This document shows positions 1 through 42,074 of a stretch of 45,228 bases of DNA, in pieces. Each line of letters opens with the position of its first letter. Position 1 is the first letter of the stretch. The DNA lies in the NCBI GenBank assembly GCA_001770205.1, contig MEQL01000019.1, positions 1 to 45,228 of the forward strand, read 5' to 3'. Origin of the DNA: Bdellovibrionales bacterium RIFOXYD12_FULL_39_22. Its GTDB lineage: Bacteria; Bdellovibrionota; Bacteriovoracia; Bacteriovoracales; Bacteriovoracaceae. Both the position numbers and the translations under genes were made by a program. Under the pieces are notes generated by a model. That model made no database searches. It saw nothing but the letters and a program-made list of their open reading frames with translations, and had not been told where the DNA came from.

Positions 1-126
1 TCTTGGTGCACAGTTCGGCGTGCAAAGCCGCTGAACGTTTTACTCATTTCGAGGAAAGGGAAAATATTTTTCAGAAACGGCTTGCTTTCTTTAAGATGTG
101 AATGTTGTTGTAAATATTTATCATAA

Positions 127-579
127 TTATTTACGTATAATTTTCTCTTCCCAAAATCTAGTCAAATGTTCAAATGCTTCCTTAGAATCCAAAGAGAGTC
201 CACACTCGTTGGCCATTGCCTTAAATGGTTTATCCCATTCACTTGGAGGATCGTCCAGTGTCTTTGGTAAATCATGCGTCTTTTTTTTTCAAAAGTTTCC
301 TTAAGTGCTTTGGTCAAGACAGTTTTTTTTATTTTTCCATGTTTGATCAATAGAACAATATCAACAAGGTCTTTTACTCTTGAGTTAAACGCTCCGCTTC
401 TTGGTAAAGTATAGGCATGAATTTTTTCAGCAAAATGTTGTTCAGCGCTTATAATAGGTATTTTCAGAGAAGAGATTCCTGCAAAATCTAACCAGTCATA
501 CAGTTTTATTTCATCATGTGGCTCAATCCAAGCATCTCCAACGCCAACGTCAATATGAAACTTAATAAAAGTCTTGCTA
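127..579 (-). pseudogene. abiEii: C-terminal half of AbiEii-family nucleotidyltransferase toxin, separated from its N-half; also frameshifted at an A9 run (281-289)
   Basis: FHIDVGVGD...AEKIHAYTLPR...NSRVKDLVD motifs. One extra A in the run gives THDLPKTLDDPPSEWDKPFKAMANECGL... with a stop at 127-129. Confidence 0.85.
570..579 (-). repeat. Left 10-bp inverted repeat (TAGCAAGACT on minus strand), inversion breakpoint
   Basis: agtcttgcta at 570-579 is the exact reverse complement of tagcaagact at 2529-2538; both encode S-K-T in the toxin frame. Confidence 0.85.
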
Positions 580-674
580 GAACGGTTTTCTGCAAGACGT
601 CCCCTTCCAAAATCTTTTTCGTAACAAGTCATACACAATCATCATATCAAGCCTCATAACAAGAACAATCTAGT

Positions 675-935
675 TCACTCCAACTGTCTAACTGGAATAC
701 CATGTATCTTTAAATATTTTAAAACTGTGCTATGCGAAGAACATATCTTTTTGGCAATTTGGGTTGTAGAAAGGCCCTTTTCTTCGTACATTTCTCTGAG
801 GAAACTCGCATCACGGAACCTTTCCTCTTGATAAAAGGTAAATAAATCACTAAGATAGTCCTGAGGAAAGTTATTATTGCTTGACGGGTGAACACCACCC
901 CATTTTTTACTCGAACCAGTAACAACCAAGAACAC
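675..935 (-). CDS. Small helix-turn-helix protein, probably truncated; true start uncertain
   Basis: LREMYEEKGLSTTQIAKKICSSHSTVLKYLKIHGIPVR is an HTH pattern; the ORF 5' part runs over the att duplicate. Confidence 0.5.
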   Translation of the reverse strand: MFLVVTGSSKKWGGVHPSSNNNFPQDYLSDLFTFYQEERFRDASFLREMYEEKGLSTTQIAKKICSSHSTVLKYLKIHGIPVRQLE

Positions 936-954
936 AAAATAATCTTAAAATTTA
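895..954 (+). repeat. att-like duplicate of tRNA-His 3' end and downstream flank
   Basis: 58/60 identity to the reverse complement of 4219-4278 (ccaccccattttttactcgaaccag[t/a]aacaaccaagaacacaaaataatct[t/c]aaaattta). Confidence 0.9.
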
Positions 955-966
955 ATCGGGAAGTGT

Positions 967-1394
967 ATGAAAACCATTATCCTACTTTGCTTCGCTTTAA
1001 ATCCATTTTCCCACGCAGAAGAAATTACTAATTTGACCTTAGAGTGTAAAACCGAATGCCGTTTTTATTACAAAAAGGATTGCTCTGATAAAACCGCAAA
1101 AATTATACTTTCAACTGATAAAAAAAATCCGTCCAATCTCTATACCGATATTGATATTACCTGCTCTGTCTCGGGAACCCCTACTCAAATACAAAAATCA
1201 AATATTCGCTTTCAATAACTGAAAAAGATGGCATATTGTCGACTGTTCATTCGAAGGAATTGGACTTGAGCAATAACACCCCTTTCAACTATTCATACTT
1301 TACTTTTTCAAATCCATATAAAGACCAATCGGTTCAGATTAAATTAGGACAACAACAGAAGATCTACTATTTCAATGGCCAGCAAGCTGATTAA
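967..1394 (+). pseudogene. Secreted hypothetical protein, probably frameshifted near 1178-1205
   Basis: Signal peptide MKTIILLCFALNPFSHA; frame stops at 1218, but another frame stays open (YSNTKIKYSLSITEKDG...QQAD*) to 1394. Confidence 0.5.
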
Positions 1395-1449
1395 CGGCTC
1401 TTGAAACTTGATGGAGAACAATATTTCAATTCACCCCAACTGGCCGAAT

Positions 1450-1533
1450 TGTAAATAAGTTAACTCCGGCCTAGTTAACTTATTTACACATTGTACCATA
1501 TAACCCATAATAATTAAGGGATATATGGTACAA
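1450..1533 (+). promoter_or_regulatory. abiE promoter/operator with two inverted repeats
   Basis: IR1 tgtaaataagttaact-N7-agttaacttatttaca (1450-1488); IR2 ttgtaccatata...tatatggtacaa (1491-1533); tttaca-N17-cataat. AbiEi antitoxins are known to autorepress through paired IRs. Confidence 0.75.
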
Positions 1534-1534
1534 A

Positions 1535-2119
1535 ATGAGAAAAACAACAACTGATCACCTAGGCACATTATTTAAAATTGCGGATGCCCAAATGGGGCTT
1601 TTCACTACCAAACAAGCCGAGAAATCTGGAATTGTTAATAATAATCATGCTTACTACGTTAGAAATGGTAACTGGAAAAAAGTTATGCGAGGAATTTATC
1701 GCCTAACCAATTACCCTCTGTCCGAAAATGAAGCGCTGATGATTTGGTTTCTCTGGTCACGTAATAGAAAAGATATCCCTCAGGGAACATTCTCCCATGA
1801 GACAGCACTTATGCTCTATGAATTATCTGATATAAATCCCCATAATATCCACATGATTGTTCCGCGCGGATTTAAACGTCTTAATCCAATACCCAAAGTT
1901 ATTAAATTGCATCGCAATAGTTTATCAAAAAAAGAGACAAAATCATTTTGGGGGATGAGGATTACCACTCCTATTCGAACATTACTTGATGTTGCCAAAA
2001 AAGGTAGCACCTCTCCTGAGTTTATATCTCAGGCCGTAAACGAGGCATTAAAAAAAGGTTTAGTTACCAGAAAAGATATTTTAAAAAATCCACGGCTCGC
2101 TAGATATATGGATAAATAA
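1535..2119 (+). CDS. abiEi: Type IV TA antitoxin, AbiEi family
   Basis: IADAQMGLFTTKQA...WKKVMRGIYRL...FSHETAL...ITTPIRTLLD; stop overlaps the start of the abiEii N-half. Confidence 0.85.
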   Translation: MRKTTTDHLGTLFKIADAQMGLFTTKQAEKSGIVNNNHAYYVRNGNWKKVMRGIYRLTNYPLSENEALMIWFLWSRNRKDIPQGTFSHETALMLYELSDINPHNIHMIVPRGFKRLNPIPKVIKLHRNSLSKKETKSFWGMRITTPIRTLLDVAKKGSTSPEFISQAVNEALKKGLVTRKDILKNPRLARYMDK

Positions 2120-2634
2120 TGAAAAAAGAGTATAAAACTTCGCGTGATTTTAGAAATGCTCTTTTAGATAAATTAAAACAGGTGGCCTTCGCTCAACAAA
2201 AAAGTGTCCAACGCATACAAAGACAAGTTGCCAGTGATCGCTTATTTACAGGAGCCAAGGCACCGTGGATATTAAAAGGAGGCCATGCTCTTGAACTTCG
2301 TATTCAAAATTCGAGAGCCACAAAAGATCTAGATCTTGCCCTGAAAGATGCAAAACTATTTAATTCAAAATCACCAAAAGATCAGAATAAAATCATCCGA
2401 GAACGCTTACAAGAAAAAGCATCAACCGATTTATCCGATTATTTTGAATTTATAATTGGCGAGCAAATCCTTGATCTTACCGCAGCACCATACGGAGGCG
2501 GACGTTTTCCTGTTGAAGCACTTATTGATAGCAAGACTACTTTCACTTGCTGCTTATTTCGACATGATGATGGTGTGTTGCTCGTGATTTTTCAGAAATT
2601 ATATATCGATGTAGATTGTTTTAATATTTTTTAA
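2119..2634 (+). pseudogene. abiEii: N-terminal half (140 aa, to 2538) of AbiEii toxin, fused to 31 unrelated residues
   Basis: PWILKGGHALELR...RATKDLDL nucleotidyltransferase motif; YGGGRFPVEALIDSKT, then homology stops exactly at the 10-bp repeat. Confidence 0.85.
2529..2538 (+). repeat. Right 10-bp inverted repeat (TAGCAAGACT), inversion breakpoint
   Basis: Exact reverse complement of 570-579. Confidence 0.85.
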
Positions 2635-3764
2635 CGAAGGTTGATAAATTGATCATTCTGGTGAGAAGTGTCGTTAATAAGACTATCTAACTTGTTGAGA
2701 AGATTCTGTGGTTCGCTGTGTATCTTACTAATGAGTTTCTTTGCTTCAATAATATCCGCTGCAGATATTGGAAGGTTATTCAATCTACTTCTATCAATTC
2801 TAGCTAGCACCGACAATAATTCATAGATTGATTTTGTGACTTCTTGCATTTTCGGAGAACCGACCCCTGGTTTAAAATATATACTTTCCTCCAATTCTAG
2901 ATTCAATCGTTTTAGCTCAGTACTTAGCTCTCCCTTTTTATGAAAAAGAAGATTGATATGGCCAGAGATTGTCTCTTCTGCAAGCGAATTAAAAAAGCTT
3001 TTGGGTTCAATAATGCCAGGTTTGATATCTAAAATGGCCTTTAGTCTGGCATTAAAGGCTGTAGCCCTTTGTGAGGATTCTCCATATGTTTTAGAAACAG
3101 CGTCAGTTAATGATTTTGACTTAACCAAAAGCTGTTCGCGAAATTTTTGCCCTTCTGGTTGTGTGAAAAAATAAGCTGTTTTCCGAACAAAATCATTACT
3201 GAGTATTTGAGAAGTATTAAACGCAAAACCCTTATCTATGGCAAAAACAAAACCGTCCTCACCAACCAAAATGTGTTCGGCTTTTGAATAATCAGTATCG
3301 CCAATTAGAATATTAAAAATATTAACCTTACTAAAGTTATTTTGGACTGTTGGAAGAAGTCTCAGCTCGTTAGCAGATCTATTAATCTTTACTTCATCCA
3401 AAAATTCAGAATAATTATACTCGTGCTCAACAAATTGCTGGACGGAAAAAGTTTCATCATTTATCACTTTTTTTACGGTCGGAGGAACCGCATGTAGCTC
3501 CAGTATTTCGCTTACTTCATAAGCCAAAATTTCGCTGGTATGGTCCTGACTAAATCCATCTTTTTTCATAACCGCTCTAACGATTGAATTTCCTTTTTCA
3601 TCAACGAGATCCCCAAGTTGAGCTTTATGCGATCCCATTTTGATTTCTGAAAGAGAATCAATGTTCACCTGTAGTACACTTATTAGACAATCACGCACAG
3701 AACTTGCGTAAGTATTTGTACTCAACAAAATCAAATTAACTAACGCAATATATTTCAGAATCAT
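2631..3764 (-). CDS. Secreted protein with atypical (PI3/PI4-kinase/HipA-like) kinase fold
   Basis: Signal peptide; EILAYEVSEILELHAVPPTV...SVQQFV...ILIGDTD...HILV...AIDKGFAF. Confidence 0.6.
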   Translation of the reverse strand: MILKYIALVNLILLSTNTYASSVRDCLISVLQVNIDSLSEIKMGSHKAQLGDLVDEKGNSIVRAVMKKDGFSQDHTSEILAYEVSEILELHAVPPTVKKVINDETFSVQQFVEHEYNYSEFLDEVKINRSANELRLLPTVQNNFSKVNIFNILIGDTDYSKAEHILVGEDGFVFAIDKGFAFNTSQILSNDFVRKTAYFFTQPEGQKFREQLLVKSKSLTDAVSKTYGESSQRATAFNARLKAILDIKPGIIEPKSFFNSLAEETISGHINLLFHKKGELSTELKRLNLELEESIYFKPGVGSPKMQEVTKSIYELLSVLARIDRSRLNNLPISAADIIEAKKLISKIHSEPQNLLNKLDSLINDTSHQNDQFINLR

Positions 3765-4270
3765 TAGGCTTCTCTTATAGATTAATTCGCTACTAGTCTT
3801 CTCGGTATAATTGTCTGAACACTAAATAGAAAACTGCGCTAAGTGCGCTAAGAGTAATTATGGCGTCAATATTTCCCACAAGTCATATTCATAACCTTTT
3901 GATCGGTTATTTTTTTGACATGCTCAGCACTATTCTAACAATTGGTGATTAATATTTTGTAGATCAAAGAGTTGTATTCCTACCCTGGATATTTCGTATC
4001 AAAGGAGGAACCATTCACCGAAAACCACTCTTCTCTGAGTTCTTTCTCTGTTCTCGAATCAGCAAACCTGAGCAAACATCACCTAATAAAAGATGGGACA
4101 TTTCGGGCGATAACTTGCGTTTCGTTCTGTATGGTATGGTGTTGACGGTTCATGTGACGTTTGACTAAAAAACGAACGAAGTCGTAGACATAATTTTTTC
4201 CTCAACGCTAATATACTGTAAATTTTGAGATTATTTTGTGTTCTTGGTTGTTTCTGGTTCGAGTAAAAAA

Positions 4271-4346
4271 TGGGGTGGCCGATGGGGCTCGAACCCACGA
4301 CAACCAGAACCACAATCTGGCGCTCTACCAACTGAACTACGGCCAC
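4271..4346 (-). tRNA. tRNA-His (GTG)
   Basis: GTGGCCGTAGTTCAGTTGGTAGAGCGCCAGATTGTGGTTCTGGTTGTCGTGGGTTCGAGCCCCATCGGCCACCCCA; encoded CCA; G(-1) at 4347. Confidence 0.98.
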
Positions 4347-4546
4347 CATGAATGATAATGTTGGTTAATGGAATGTTTATAGTGTGTTGCAGGTTATTCG
4401 TCAATTCATAAATTAAAGAAAGTTGACTAAAAGGCCATGGAATTGTGGGCCATCAAATTTGTCAAAAGAGAAATTTTGTTAGTTAAATTTAGTGGTATAG
4501 AATATACTTTATCAAGTTGATACGAAATTTTAATGGAGGAGTTTAT

Positions 4547-5158
4547 ATGAGATTAGTTCTGATAGTTACTATTTTAGTGTTGGCCCAGGCAACAAACCTT
4601 TTTGCGTACGGAACAGGACTTACTGCCTATCCCCTGATGAGTGAAAAAAGACTCGTTACCACTGAATTTACGGGGATTGTTTCAGATCATGGGGGCGTGG
4701 GAATTCAGACTCGTTATATGCAAAAAATTAACAATGTTACTTCCGTAGATGCGGGAATTGGCCTTGCGGGAGGAGATCGTTCTGGATGTGCCTTTGCTGG
4801 TATTGATTACGAAATTTTTCCGGATTATAAGAAACAACCAAGAGTGTCTATTAAGTCTTCTTTTGAATATGCTAAGGAGTTTGGCCTTCCATATAACAAT
4901 TTGAAGGTGGCCCCTGTGGTGTCAAAGGGATTTAGTTTTTGGGGACACGAAGGCTTTCCATATGTAACGATGCCGATAGCTATTTCTTTGGAGGCCGAGC
5001 ATAAAACATATGAAACGACCATGAATTTAACGACCGGAATTGCGGGAAAAATTCCATACGAAGGATATACCCATCTTACGGGAAATATTGAGGCCGTATT
5101 TAATTTGAAAGATAGCTATTCGGCCATTTTTATGGGTGTTTCTTATCCGCTAAACTAA
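4547..5158 (+). CDS. Secreted, probable outer-membrane beta-barrel protein
   Basis: GGAGGA RBS before ATG 4547; signal peptide; alternating beta-strand pattern ending GVSYPLN. Confidence 0.6.
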   Translation: MRLVLIVTILVLAQATNLFAYGTGLTAYPLMSEKRLVTTEFTGIVSDHGGVGIQTRYMQKINNVTSVDAGIGLAGGDRSGCAFAGIDYEIFPDYKKQPRVSIKSSFEYAKEFGLPYNNLKVAPVVSKGFSFWGHEGFPYVTMPIAISLEAEHKTYETTMNLTTGIAGKIPYEGYTHLTGNIEAVFNLKDSYSAIFMGVSYPLN

Positions 5159-6215
5159 AGTAGGCGTTTATCTCTTGTATTAATTCTCCCTCTAATATGG
5201 ATGAATCAATCGATAAATTTCTAGCAATCCACTGATGTAGGTCCGAGGGGATTTTTGTAATAAAAATTCTCTCTTCATTTTTATAATTAATTTTTATAGC
5301 GATAGCATGAAGTGCATGACGGGGAATTTCCATTAATGCGTGATCTTCTGGAGAGGCCAGTCGATCTTTGAAGCGTTGAAATAATTCATATCCTCCGCAA
5401 TAGAGCTTGTCACCTAAAAGCGGAAGTTGGTGAATGGCCGCATGTACACGAATTTGATGCTGGCGGCCAGTTTGAGGAAATGCTAGGCCTAAAGCATAAT
5501 TTTTTTCTTGATAAATAATTTTAAAAAAGGTTTGGGCCGTTTTACCGCGATTGGAGTTTTCGGGATATGCTTCGACGATTATGCGCTGATCTTTATCGTA
5601 AGGCGAATCAAGTCGTTCATTCGCGGTAAAATTTGGAGTAATGGTCTGGAGGGGGCCCTTAGCAATGAAAAAATAACATTTTTTTACCAAAGAGCTTTCG
5701 AATTGAGTTGCCAGTGCAGCGGATGTTTGCGGATCTTTTCCCAGTAGTAAAATCCCAGAAGTTTCTCGATCCAATCGATGGATGGAGTGAATAGTTTTTC
5801 CAGGAACGGTTTCAAAAAAAACAGTGGCGCAATAGAAAAGATGGCGGCCGGCAGGATGAGTGGACATAAAAGGCGGTTTAGAAATAATAATAAGCTCATT
5901 ATCTTCAAAAATTACCTCTGGGGCTTCTTCTAAGCTAATAAGTTCATTATTCCAGTATTCATCCTCGTGAATAGTTTTTGTAATTGCCAGAAGGATTTCA
6001 TCATTAGAGTGAACCTTACTGCTGGCCTTGGTGGACGTTGGTCTATTAATAATAATAACTTCTCTGGAGGCAATTTTTCTTTTGATTTCTTCTCTGGAGA
6101 GTGTAGAAAAATGAGAGAGGATAAATTGATCCAGGCGCATTCCATCTTGTTCGACATCCACCTTCCAGTAAATGGAAAACTTATCTCGTTCAAATTTTTT
6201 TGAAAGCAGCGCCAT
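5130..6215 (-). CDS. RluA/C/D-family pseudouridine synthase with S4 domain
   Basis: GMRLDQFI (S4), KPPFMSTHP, HRLDRETSG, TGRQHQIRVH, LLGDKLY, HALHA. Confidence 0.95.
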   Translation of the reverse strand: MALLSKKFERDKFSIYWKVDVEQDGMRLDQFILSHFSTLSREEIKRKIASREVIIINRPTSTKASSKVHSNDEILLAITKTIHEDEYWNNELISLEEAPEVIFEDNELIIISKPPFMSTHPAGRHLFYCATVFFETVPGKTIHSIHRLDRETSGILLLGKDPQTSAALATQFESSLVKKCYFFIAKGPLQTITPNFTANERLDSPYDKDQRIIVEAYPENSNRGKTAQTFFKIIYQEKNYALGLAFPQTGRQHQIRVHAAIHQLPLLGDKLYCGGYELFQRFKDRLASPEDHALMEIPRHALHAIAIKINYKNEERIFITKIPSDLHQWIARNLSIDSSILEGELIQEINAYFSLADKKHP

Positions 6216-6240
6216 CGCAAAATCTACTAGGCCAATACAA

Positions 6241-8451
6241 TTAATATCTATTTTTTATAATGTATTTCAATAAGGAAATTGCCCCATTCTTGCTATATTT
6301 ATGCTTAGTAGTCAAGTTCGTAATAATGGTGTTTATTTGTTCGCGGCCTTCTTTGGAGAGCGGTGTTGTGATATTATCTCTGGCCCCTTCTGCCTTGGTT
6401 ATTTCTGCTTCATAGAAAACAAGGTTATTAGCAATGCCCCTAATTATCTCAGTTTGTTCTTGCTTGAAAGATTCTTGAAGTTTTCGAGCAATTTCTGGAA
6501 AAACATCACTGTAATTAATTGTCGTTCCTGGGTTGTCTAGGGCATAGGCCCCTAGCTTAGAGAGAAGATGAGAGCGAAAGTTGGTGGCGTTTTCTTTAAG
6601 TCCAATTGACTTTTCAAACTCATCGATTAAGTAGGTGTCACTGTTTTCATATTTTCCAGTGATAAAATTTTTCACTTTCTCTTTTTTGATTAGGGCGTTG
6701 ATGTTTTCTATATAGCGACGAATATATTCTTCATATGAACGATTATCAACTAACCCCAGAGAGTCTCGCAATTCTTTATCAAAGATATCCAAAGAGTAGT
6801 CTTTTAAAATAGTAATAAAGCGAGAAGTATTGTGAAAATCACCAACAGGAGTCATGTTAAGAAAGTCAAAATCATTTTTTCTGGTAATAAACTTTTGAAG
6901 ATATTCAATCACTTCTACTGAGGTGATGTTGGAATGAGAGGTAGTTAAGGAGTAAATAATCTTCTTAACATCACGAGGAGAGATTCCAAACTTACCCTCG
7001 TACACAACGTCGCTATCAAATTCTTGCGCAATATCATCATAGCTTTGTAGAAGTATTTGGCGTGATTCTACATCAAGATTTTCTGGCATAATTTTATCTG
7101 CCAAATAGAGGGCCTTATCTAGGGGAGTAAGTTTGCCAGCAATGGGAGCGATTTTTTTGCTTTCTGCGTAGTTGTTGGCCTGACATTTGCGCAGACGGGT
7201 CATTACGGAAAAAAGACAAAGGGTTTTTAGAGCATGGGGTTCAAAGGTAGATTTTGAACTGAGTCCTTGCACCTGCTCGTCATATATTCGCACCTCGTCG
7301 CGATAATCGAGAAGATAGGGAACTTTGATAAAATTAAAACGTCCCATAAAAGATTTAAAGTCGGGATGTTGTTTAAAAGCATCTAGATGAACTTCATTAG
7401 ATGATCCCACAAAGAAAATATCTAATTCTGTTAGTATGCCATTTAAGTTTAGAGTTCCAGTTTCCATGGTCATGAGTAAATATTTAAAGGCATCCAGCGG
7501 ACGTTTTAGAAGATCGGAAAATTCTAAGATTCCGCGGTTTGCCAAAATAACTTCTCCTTGTGCGGAAAAAAGATTTAGTGATTGTAAGCTAGGCGGAAGG
7601 CTGGCCAACCGTTTATCCATGCTAATCTGTTGCAACCTGGCATCAACGTGTAATTGTGGCTCAATAGTTACTGCGCTGTTTGAATAGCGTTTGCTGATAG
7701 TAAAACGCTCTACTCGAATATGTTTCAAAACTTCACCATGATTGCCCTTATAATTTTTCAAAAGAGCATCATAGATCATACGATTCCGTTTTGATAAATC
7801 GCCACGATAGAGATAGGACTTTTGTACTGAAATCAAACGCTCTTTGCTATTAGATAATAATTTATCAATCATTTGCTGTCGGGTGAGGGCCGGCACAAGC
7901 AAAATGGGATGATCTTTAAGCTCTGAAGAAATAATAGCGGAAATGTCTTTGTCATCGAGGTAGGCATAGGTGCTTACCTGTTTACTTTGAGCATTATTGC
8001 TAAGGCCTAGGGTGCCTTTTACAAAATTATCAATGGGGAAAATCCAACTGAAAGTAAAAAGCTCTCCTTCTGGAAGGTTGGAGTATTCTTCTGCTCCCTT
8101 CATAAATTTTCGCACGAGGCTGGATTTGGCAGATCCGTTAGGGCCGACAAGTAAAATAAATTTATTATTTAGGCCTTCTTCTTGAAAGTTTTTTAGGTTG
8201 AGCCAAATTTCTTGCTGTGTCTTGTATTGTCCAAATACCGCCGGAGAGTCGGGATGCGATCTTTGAAAAAGCTTGAAATGTCCATTGGCGTCTTGGCCAA
8301 AGTGTTCCAACATGTCCAAAAAATATTGGTAAGATGGCCGACACTCTTTTTCTACTTCCACTTCAAATTTTTTCATGTAATCTTCGAATGAAAGAACCTC
8401 TGTTTGATTTTCATTGCTACTGTTTTCGGTTTGTATCCACTCCATAGGCAT
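6241..8451 (-). CDS. prkA: PrkA-family AAA serine protein kinase
   Basis: ILLVGPNGSAKSS Walker A; ANRGILEFSDLLKRP; GISPR. Confidence 0.85.
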   Translation of the reverse strand: MPMEWIQTENSSNENQTEVLSFEDYMKKFEVEVEKECRPSYQYFLDMLEHFGQDANGHFKLFQRSHPDSPAVFGQYKTQQEIWLNLKNFQEEGLNNKFILLVGPNGSAKSSLVRKFMKGAEEYSNLPEGELFTFSWIFPIDNFVKGTLGLSNNAQSKQVSTYAYLDDKDISAIISSELKDHPILLVPALTRQQMIDKLLSNSKERLISVQKSYLYRGDLSKRNRMIYDALLKNYKGNHGEVLKHIRVERFTISKRYSNSAVTIEPQLHVDARLQQISMDKRLASLPPSLQSLNLFSAQGEVILANRGILEFSDLLKRPLDAFKYLLMTMETGTLNLNGILTELDIFFVGSSNEVHLDAFKQHPDFKSFMGRFNFIKVPYLLDYRDEVRIYDEQVQGLSSKSTFEPHALKTLCLFSVMTRLRKCQANNYAESKKIAPIAGKLTPLDKALYLADKIMPENLDVESRQILLQSYDDIAQEFDSDVVYEGKFGISPRDVKKIIYSLTTSHSNITSVEVIEYLQKFITRKNDFDFLNMTPVGDFHNTSRFITILKDYSLDIFDKELRDSLGLVDNRSYEEYIRRYIENINALIKKEKVKNFITGKYENSDTYLIDEFEKSIGLKENATNFRSHLLSKLGAYALDNPGTTINYSDVFPEIARKLQESFKQEQTEIIRGIANNLVFYEAEITKAEGARDNITTPLSKEGREQINTIITNLTTKHKYSKNGAISLLKYIIKNRY

Positions 8452-36732: not shown

Positions 36733-37053
36733 ATGGAGATTGTTGTACTAAAGCAGGCAAAAAAAGAGTTAAAAGATGGGCCCAAAGAATTGATGGTGGA
36801 CATTTATTCACTTTTCGACGACCTGTCACACGGAAAATCTTTAGGAATGCCAATCTCACGGCCACTAACATCGATAGCAAGTGGATTACATGAGCTACGA
36901 TTATCTGGCAGGGCCGGAGAATTTCGAGTGTTTTATTTTATTAAAATTGGCGACGCGATTTATATAGTCCACGCCTGCTCTAAAAAGAAACAGAGCATTG
37001 ATAAAAGAACGACCGATCTGCTGAGAAGTAGAATTAGGAGTATAAATTTATGA
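36733..37053 (+). CDS. RelE/Gp49-like (HigB-type) toxin
   Basis: LGMPISRPL...GLHELRL...EFRVFY...IVHACSKKKQ. Confidence 0.85.
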   Translation: MEIVVLKQAKKELKDGPKELMVDIYSLFDDLSHGKSLGMPISRPLTSIASGLHELRLSGRAGEFRVFYFIKIGDAIYIVHACSKKKQSIDKRTTDLLRSRIRSINL

Positions 37054-37346
37054 AAGAGACTCAAACAAAATTTAAAAGTTCAAATGAGTTTGGATCATTC
37101 TTGGGTCTATCTGAATTGGAAATGGCCATTATTCAGCAAAAGAAAAAGCTCATCGAGAAATTAAAAAAATCTCGCGTCGAGCATGGACTTTCTCAAGCGG
37201 AACTTGCTCAGATGGTTCAAACGAAGCAACCAGCAATTGCACGAATGGAGTCTGGTCTGGTAAGTGAAGTTAGTTTTGATTTCCTTGCAAAGGTTGCACT
37301 AGTTTTAGATGTATCATTTACTTTTAAAAGATTAAAGGCTGCCTAA
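37050..37346 (+). CDS. XRE-family HTH antitoxin (HigA-type)
   Basis: GLSQAELAQMVQTKQPAIARMESG; 4-nt overlap with the toxin. Confidence 0.85.
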   Translation: MKETQTKFKSSNEFGSFLGLSELEMAIIQQKKKLIEKLKKSRVEHGLSQAELAQMVQTKQPAIARMESGLVSEVSFDFLAKVALVLDVSFTFKRLKAA

Positions 37347-40822: not shown

Positions 40823-40948
40823 AAAAGTAACAGTCAGTTGAGGTTAATTGCTTCTTGTGGTAATAGTTTTACTATTGCTCTTTTACATTCAAATATTGGG
40901 AGACAGATAGACGAGAAGCAAAGAACCTCACTACTATTGGAGGATTCT

Positions 40949-42074
40949 ATGCAAAAAATTAAAAGAAGAACTGGAGTTATATTTCGGGAAGAGATTGTTA
41001 TTGATGGTGTCAGGTACACTCGCTGTGCTAATCGCAAAGAGGATTTGAAGCGCTGGAAGCGCAAACTATTAACGGAGAGAGATACCCACAATGTATTGGG
41101 CATAGTTGTTAATCGGCAAATGCTTTTTTCAGATTTTGCTCAGACATATATCGAAAGAAAGATTCGCAAGAATCTGGCAACGTCGACCATCACCAACTAC
41201 CGACTCTACCTCAAAAATCATCTCCTGTGATCAAGGACACCAAGCTCTTTGATGTTACCAAAGCACAGGCGGAGAAGATCATTGATAAGATGCGCGCGAG
41301 TCATTCCAAGAAAGGATCAATGACGTCATTGGTTTTCTGAAGGCGATTTTAAATGAGGCGGTAAAGAGCGATCTGCTAGTCAAGTCCCCTCTGCACGGAT
41401 TAGATTGCCTGAAGGAAGAAAAAAGTAGCGTCAACTATTGGGCCGAATCGGAGATTAATACATTCTTGGAGCGCAATGCACAGGATAGAAATTTTCTGCT
41501 CTATCTTTTGGCCATCAACACGGGGATGCGACGAGGTGAGCTTTGTGGACTAAAATGGGCGCAGGTGAATTTTCACACAGGACTCATTGAAGTAATTGGC
41601 AACCTTACTCGCTTTGGATTGGGTGCCACCAAAACAAACTTAATTCGCTACATTCCGATGAATTTACGGGTGCGACAGTATCTGCTGCTGGCCTTGAAGT
41701 CCCGTAAATCAGAGTTTGTCCTGAGCGGTGAGGATAATCGGCCTTATGACACCAACCACGTTTACAGAAACTTTGCTGATGCCTGTAAGCGAGCTGGCGT
41801 CCGCCAAATCCGCTTTCACGATCTGCGACATACTTTTGCCAGCCAGTTCATGATGAAGGGGGGAAACATCTACGATCTGCAAAATATTCTAGGCCACACG
41901 TCGCTAAATATGACTCAGCGGTATGCGCATTTGAGTCCGGCCTACCTGGCCGGGAAAACGGAGATATTAAACTTCGGAGGAGCGCCTGAAAGTGCAACCG
42001 AAAGTGAGAGTCCCACATATTCCCCACACGGCCAGTTTTCTAAGGTAAATCTTACTTTGGAAAAAGTGATCTAA
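40949..42074 (+). pseudogene. Tyrosine integrase with two frameshifts (near 41226 and 41314)
   Basis: GGAGGA RBS at ATG 40949; frames join as ..KNHLL/PVIKDTKL..SKKG/INDVIGFLKAILNEAV..; catalytic TGMRRGEL, TKT, FHDLRH, LGH, RYAH all present. Confidence 0.88.

Follow-up and report, generated by a model that had tools for sequence, protein, structure and literature searches.

AbiE is a type IV toxin–antitoxin and abortive-infection system (Dy et al., 2014; PMC3985639), described there as a bicistronic, autoregulated operon in which the antitoxin AbiEi binds inverted repeats in its own promoter. The same account defines four motifs in the toxin AbiEii, a DUF1814 nucleotidyltransferase, namely I (hGG/S), II (DhD), III (K...R) and IV (+DxxD), and reports for the AbiEii studied experimentally that toxicity is lost whichever of them carries a single substitution (PMC3985639). 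Here we analyse an abiE locus at the left end of contig MEQL01000019.1 of Bdellovibrionales bacterium RIFOXYD12_FULL_39_22, within a window of 45,228 bases (the whole stretch of DNA that was analysed) whose left edge lies 126 nucleotides (nt) past the stop codon of the C-terminal half of abiEii. As in the described system, abiEii is directly preceded, and overlapped at its start, by an abiEi gene whose product has an AbiEi_4 N-terminal domain, palindromes occupy the likely promoter region and toxin motifs I–IV are recognizable; the locus differs in that an inversion has parted toxin motifs I and II from III and IV, the toxin has lost four amino acids and, in the window record, its gene carries a frameshift. 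From its sequence the locus seems best called an abiE remnant, comprising an orphan abiEi and a split abiEii pseudogene, and the split probably reflects a fixed, one-off inversion at a microhomology that killed abiEii within a decaying island, not a programmed switch.

Two described classes of inversion invite comparison. In partial intergenic invertons, as summarized by Chanin et al. (PMC10028968, citing Milman et al., 2023), one repeat lies in a gene and the other outside it, and inversion truncates the open reading frame (ORF); according to that summary, both orientations of known gene-overlapping invertons have been shown by reads, and many of them are shufflons that swap homologous domains (PMC10028968). 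Our locus resembles the partial intergenic invertons in having one repeat in abiEii, one outside it and a truncated ORF, and differs from them in that one orientation is seen, without an alternative cassette, an intact recombinase in the 45-kb window or conservation. The second class comes from the E. coli genetics of the early 1990s, in which spontaneous inversions between inverted repeats of ~10–20 bp arise by illegitimate or short-homology recombination. The size of the microhomology, the kilobase scale of the segment, the conservative outcome and the inactivation of a gene all match this class, from which nothing in the present data sets our case apart, and the palindrome found at one of the breakpoints may have favoured the inversion. 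When the literature was searched for inversions at short repeats in bacteria, the matches listed concerned plant plastomes, insects and vertebrates or human, and none was bacterial.

The N-terminal half of the toxin gene spans 140 codons on the forward strand (2119–2538), as recognized by Pfam, PADLOC and alignment, and encodes motifs I (LKGG) and II (DLD). The C-terminal half lies on the reverse strand (130–578, in the two frames 282–578 and 130–279) and encodes motifs III (EKIHAYTLPR) and IV (KDLVD), both within 282–578; all four toxin motifs are thus present but on two polypeptides. A sequence-only reading of this stretch had proposed that the two were halves of one AbiEii, and profile searches bore it out: on the Pfam AbiEii profile (gathering cutoff 22.5 bits) the forward ORF at 2119–2634 covers positions 12–91 (E = 7.6e-08, 33 bits) and the reverse ORF at 162–638 covers positions 95–197 (E = 1.4e-14, 55 bits), and on PADLOC PDLC02291 the N-terminal half covers positions 5–128 (E = 3.4e-30) and the C-terminal half positions 128–223 (E = 1.7e-30), with one shared position. 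The AbiEii family profile in turn matches solved DUF1814 toxins, such as Rv1045 (E ~4e-18). At the level of single residues, the two halves tile the 289-amino-acid homologue P0002 with 79% (N-terminal half) and 76% (C-terminal half) identity, overlapping by the 3 residues that the repeat described below encodes and joining without gain or loss. The N-terminal half ends ...VEALIDSKT and is followed by 31 unrelated codons before a stop at 2634; the C-terminal half begins SKTFIKFHIDVG, behind ~20 unrelated codons contributed by the other side of the breakpoint, and its codons begin at 578 and not, as had been read, at 579. Because the toxicity of the studied AbiEii depends on every one of the motifs, neither fragment should be toxic, and the toxin is most likely dead.

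Both points at which AbiEii homology breaks coincide with copies of a 10-bp sequence, TAGCAAGACT. Homology of the N-terminal half stops at the right copy (2529–2538, forward strand), and an exact reverse complement, reading AGTCTTGCTA on the forward strand, marks the left breakpoint (570–579). These are the only two exact copies in the 45,228 bases, with 0.08 expected by chance and at least two copies in 1 of 100 shuffled sequences, which served as the chance baseline for repeat counts and for the junction local scores given below; allowing one mismatch adds 2 sites, neither of them paired, and a total of 4 was reached in 28 of 100 shuffles. Between the two copies lies a segment of 1,949 bp (580–2528). 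Flipping it in silico restores the abiEii frame, giving a single open frame that runs across the junction, is colinear with P0002 and would encode ~287 amino acids once the frameshift is corrected. Both reciprocal junctions are present in the window, no base was gained or lost at the exchange, the antitoxin gene and its promoter lie inside the segment, and domain profile scans found no recombinase there. The sequence-only reading was accurate on the repeat at the two breakpoints, the rebuilt gene and its length, the placement of abiEi with its promoter and the lack of an invertase within the segment. It had also traced the remaining frame fault to a run of nine adenines; the frameshift is present in the window record and is better described as the absence of one base from the A9 run (281–289, forward strand) or from its immediate neighbourhood, after which the frame continues for 50 codons at 130–279 on the reverse strand.

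The antitoxin gene is intact. abiEi (1535–2119, forward strand) encodes 194 amino acids matching Pfam AbiEi_4 and PADLOC AbiEi PDLC02228 (E = 2e-63 over residues 8–187), and its stop codon and the abiEii ATG overlap by 1 nt. Immediately upstream, 1450–1534 (forward strand) is likely the abiE operator and promoter, judging by its two palindromes (fold z −8.8), the first of which (1450–1488) has perfect 16-bp arms, and by a sigma-70-like site at 1483–1511.

By itself, the 10-bp inverted repeat is no more than chance supplies. In the restored order, 14 ten-mer inverted pairs connect the gene with the 5 kb around it, compared with 6.95 ± 3.4 in shuffled sequences, and 99.5% of 200 shuffles contained at least one such pair. 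Nor did junction alignment and shuffles reveal extended symmetry around the 10-bp repeat beyond chance: the local score of the flanks past the 10 bp was equalled in 85 of 1000 shuffles when 60 nt were anchored and in 267 of 500 when 120 nt were used. The same counts led us to reject as chance a relic second copy of abiEii at 580–640, a candidate raised by a loose likeness to the end of the N-terminal half. What does exceed chance is the placement of the repeat exactly at both homology breakpoints. Suitable microhomology was always available by chance, and its presence therefore needs no evolved explanation.

The comparison with related genomes that the sequence-only reading had suggested turned up no conserved partner site in 80 intact loci. 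A contig search gave 592 matches, of which we analysed the best 80, all full length and 47–65% identical; they derive mostly from metagenome-assembled genomes (MAGs) of Bdellovibrionota, Acidobacteriota, Elusimicrobiota and Verrucomicrobiota, the window's genome and its close kin are absent from them, and ranking by score works against split genes. An inverted 10-mer partner for the homologous site occurred in 17 of the 80 (~0.31 per locus expected by chance), and the heptamer GCAAGAC was found at the homologous site in none of them. The repeat is not conserved at the same place in relatives, a test that the 47–65% identity makes weak for a recent invention. The operon itself is well preserved, with an abiEi homologue directly upstream of abiEii in 78 of the 80 related loci. 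Toxin decay is common in the clade, abiEii having an in-frame stop in 4 of the 80 best-scoring loci (L001, L034, L066 and L068). In L001 (199–1062), which belongs to a Deltaproteobacteria MAG and is the closest genomic relative among the best 80, the stop follows ...GVGDV.

The split gene carries lesions beyond the inversion. In addition to the frameshift in the C-terminal half, the N-terminal half has a 4-amino-acid deletion in the conserved RLLCRLF helix, a gap unique among 14 aligned homologues and affecting a helix whose L43, R45, L46 and F47 are invariant in the homologue alignment. The repeat encodes a serine at a place where 13 of 17 homologues have glycine. A search of proteins of 94–300 amino acids within a set of 5.8 billion clusters returned no intact near-identical protein, the best full-length match to the N-terminal half being 76% identical. 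A second database record, P0215 (135 amino acids, source 'src'), corresponds roughly to window positions 235–632 on the reverse strand. Its foreign N-terminal extension and its junction are those of the ORF of the C-terminal half, but it reads through the site of the window's 1-nt frameshift without a change of frame. P0215 ends as though at a contig edge, and a further protein, P0001 (162 amino acids), ends 9 codons before the window's stop. P0003 (147 amino acids) shares 93% identity with P0002; its homology to AbiEii ceases past ...EATID, three codons short of the end of the window's break, and a stop follows 6 residues on.

Of the 150 AbiEii-like matches listed, ~20 have their first residue very close to the break position and ~10 have it ~20 residues earlier. 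We considered these short proteins as evidence of a recurrent natural split at this site and rejected them as such, as they start at a conserved methionine or leucine (MxGR..., MDLDAAPYGG...) and are probably gene-caller starts on truncated genes.

A second pair of repeats, which the sequence-only reading had not picked up, bears on which order came first. A tRNA-His gene (anticodon GTG; 4271–4346, reverse strand; ARAGORN, and Rfam tRNA with 61.5 bits) is overlapped at its 3′ end by one copy of a 60-nt, att-site-like repeat (R2; 4219–4278, reverse strand), and the other copy (R1; 895–954, forward strand), in which the last 8 nt of the tRNA-His are followed by 52 nt of downstream flank, falls within the segment that was inverted. 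The two copies are 97% complementary, are inverted as sequenced and are interleaved with the 10-bp repeats (570 < 895 < 2529 < 4219). Flipping 580–2528 makes them direct, bounding ~2 kb beside the tRNA-His. Direct repeats that bound DNA next to a tRNA gene are the usual signature of an integrated element. Because the same flip both mends abiEii and makes the 60-nt repeats direct, we read it as support for the intact order being ancestral, and we infer that the event happened inside a decaying tRNA-His-linked island region. The restored arrangement would resemble tRNA-linked islands with direct att repeats in that the 60-nt repeat includes the tRNA-His 3′ end and would be direct and enclose ~2 kb of cargo; it differs from them in that the repeat includes just 8 nt of the tRNA, one copy is now inverted, and domain profile scans found no integrase between 580 and 4218. 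When 1–4400 was compared by blastn with plasmid and phage collections, the tRNA-His was the sole match, and in an Rfam scan of 1–6000 the tRNA alone exceeded the threshold. As sequenced, the 60-nt repeat could itself support RecA-dependent inversion of 955–4218.

The two junctions also differ in secondary structure. A palindrome at the left junction (571–598) has an 11-bp stem and a DNA fold of −8.7 kcal/mol (z −4.4 for 560–610), and the right junction lies within a weaker palindrome (fold z −2.1 for 2510–2560). In the restored order, the site in the gene keeps just one half of a palindrome, and the palindrome arm that partners the gene's 10-mer lies between two convergent genes, for a small helix-turn-helix (HTH) protein and for a 377-amino-acid protein. 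Around the breakpoint that was intergenic in the inferred ancestral order (571–598 and 2531–2552) there are three occurrences of the motif GCAAG/CTTGC, which can form alternative hairpins.

In the history that we favour, the ancestral order leftwards from the tRNA-His would have been a 60-nt repeat, a remnant island of ~2 kb (the 377-amino-acid gene, the intergenic palindrome and the small HTH gene), the second 60-nt copy, a pair of small ORFs, abiEi and an unbroken abiEii. By chance, the intergenic palindrome would have had one arm that matched, as reverse complement, 10 bases of abiEii at its D-S-K-T codons, and a reciprocal exchange at this 10-base microhomology would have inverted the 1,949 bp between. 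The exchange would have been illegitimate or short-homology recombination, possibly aided by a hairpin, and the intergenic palindrome may have promoted breakage or template switching. After the flip, abiEi with its operator and promoter would drive no more of the toxin than its first 140 codons (motifs I and II), extended by 31 junk codons, and the last ~147 codons (motifs III and IV) would sit on the opposite strand behind ~20 foreign codons; the antitoxin/repressor would survive and the toxin would be lost. Further decay, comprising the 4-amino-acid deletion and the 1-nt frameshift in the window record, would have come after or with the event. The data show the anatomy, the colinearity with homologues, the availability of such repeats by chance and their lack of conservation; from these we infer in what order things happened, how the exchange took place and that toxicity was lost. 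A one-off inactivating inversion, which the sequence-only reading had offered as one of two possibilities, agrees with every test that we made.

Several considerations weigh against such a history. A clean, conservative, reciprocal exchange at 10 bp is typical of a site-specific recombinase and rare in illegitimate recombination. By their sequence, the junction palindromes could be protein-binding sites, and an invertase acting in trans could come from a gene beyond the 45 kb. The frameshift may be either later decay or a sequence error in the window record. The lack of an intact form among the database proteins is weak evidence, the protein set apparently holding 2 sequences of this gene, and a minority of the opposite orientation may exist in the population. 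Finally, the truncation of P0003 hints at a recurrently hit site.

The alternative that survives best, though we consider it unlikely, is the other possibility that the sequence-only reading had raised, a reversible partial intergenic inverton in which a recombinase encoded elsewhere flips 580–2528 and turns the toxin off and on, AbiEi and its promoter moving together. The repeats are indeed exact and inverted and the exchange conservative, but the repeat is just 10 bp, a length expected by chance, without flanking symmetry and not conserved in the 80 relatives. The palindromic structure at the junctions also speaks for it, but in the restored order the site in the gene has a single palindrome half. 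The promoter and antitoxin would be intact in both states, and the flipped-back gene could be in frame, given that P0215 lacks the frameshift; yet with the 4-amino-acid helix deletion and the frameshift of the window record, it is not obvious that a toxin restored by flipping would work. The truncation of P0003 lies close to this site, whereas both observable records of this gene are split and no intact form was found. Gene-overlapping invertons are numerous, and as described by Chanin et al. their recombinases are often distant or unidentified (PMC10028968), but no intact recombinase lies in the 45 kb. The sole recombinase among 41 further ORFs of at least 90 amino acids that we scanned is a phage-type integrase split between 40838–41230 and 41466–42074, ~38 kb from the right repeat in another island with toxin–antitoxin-like genes. 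We considered the second of these ORFs as a small FimB-like invertase and rejected it because its N-terminal part is the separate ORF at 40838–41230, making it a broken phage-type integrase. With a non-conserved repeat of chance size, no intact recombinase in 45 kb and additional lesions, a reversible toxin switch finds no support.

Somewhat less likely again is an artefact of assembly or amplification, in which the real genome is intact and the inversion arose from chimeric reads or from the assembler. Short microhomologies are where amplification chimeras typically join DNA in inverted orientation, and turning the segment back puts right two features that are independent of each other, the gene and the direction of the 60-nt repeats; the 1-nt indel relative to P0215 moreover represents at least one possible sequence error in the window. 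Such an artefact would, however, need both reciprocal junctions to be wrong without a base lost or gained, and 10 bp is far below the k-mer length of an assembler. P0215, which may or may not be an independent assembly, differs by an indel and shares the junction peptide. The least probable of the histories that we weighed has two steps, insertion into abiEii of a 2,055-bp element (580–954 plus the reverse complement of 2539–4218) with a 10-bp target duplication, followed by an exchange between the 60-nt repeats that flipped 955–4218: the interleaving of the repeats allows it, as flipping 955–4218 makes the 10-bp repeats direct and has them flank 2,055 bp like a target-site duplication, and a 60-nt repeat at 97% identity can sustain RecA-dependent exchange, but the putative element has no transposase in profile scans and, read by eye, no terminal inverted repeats at its ends, would contain a tRNA-His flank copy that nothing accounts for, and requires two events where one suffices. 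Other histories take the probability that remains.

If it was indeed a single microhomology inversion that removed the toxin and left an orphan antitoxin/regulator, the locus offers a tidy example of the death of a defence module. It also carries a caution for automated inverton calling. Because repeats of this kind are expected by chance, a perfect 10-bp inverted repeat at the two breakpoints of a split gene does not by itself identify a programmed switch. None of the papers listed by our literature searches dealt with inversion control of an AbiE toxin. Were reads to show both orientations, this would be the first AbiE toxin under inversion control, abortive infection would join the phase-varied functions, and the truncation of P0003 would become a second instance of the same switch. 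A working inverton would then imply, in a predatory-bacterium-like lineage, phase-variable altruistic suicide with the antitoxin/repressor still expressed, an outcome that we regard as doubtful.

The remaining genes near the breakpoints belong to the putative island and its surroundings, and none of the 80 related loci has a homologue of the HTH gene, of either small ORF or of the 377-amino-acid gene. The small HTH gene (675–893, reverse strand) encodes a weak, phage-like, homeodomain-type HTH with sub-threshold Pfam matches (HTH_3, HTH_31 and HTH_38); its start is uncertain, the listed ORF (675–935) running into the 60-nt repeat, and an Atlas feature match of 0.93 to phage HTH clusters of 60–71 amino acids is an unconfirmed lead. 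Just outside the right breakpoint, the 377-amino-acid protein (2631–3764, reverse strand) has a hydrophobic N-terminus and matches NCBIfam TIGR03843 (SCO1664 family) below the cutoff (E = 4.7e-10). Its Atlas neighbours partly carry PI3_PI4_kinase, also an unconfirmed lead, and from its sequence the protein is possibly PI3/PI4-kinase-like and maybe secreted. In the ancestral order this gene would have been convergent on the HTH gene.

Between the HTH gene and the abiE promoter, an 83-amino-acid ORF with a signal-peptide-like start (967–1218, forward strand) is overlapped by a 52-amino-acid ORF whose frame is open from 1152 (1152–1394, forward strand). Neither has a family match or a homologue in the 80 loci, and the two may represent a single frameshifted gene for a small secreted protein. 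Farther right, core genes occupy 5130–8451, and a second mobile-looking region (36733–37346 and 40838–42074, forward strand) holds a Gp49 (HigB-like)/HTH_3 pair, more HTH_37 genes and the split integrase.

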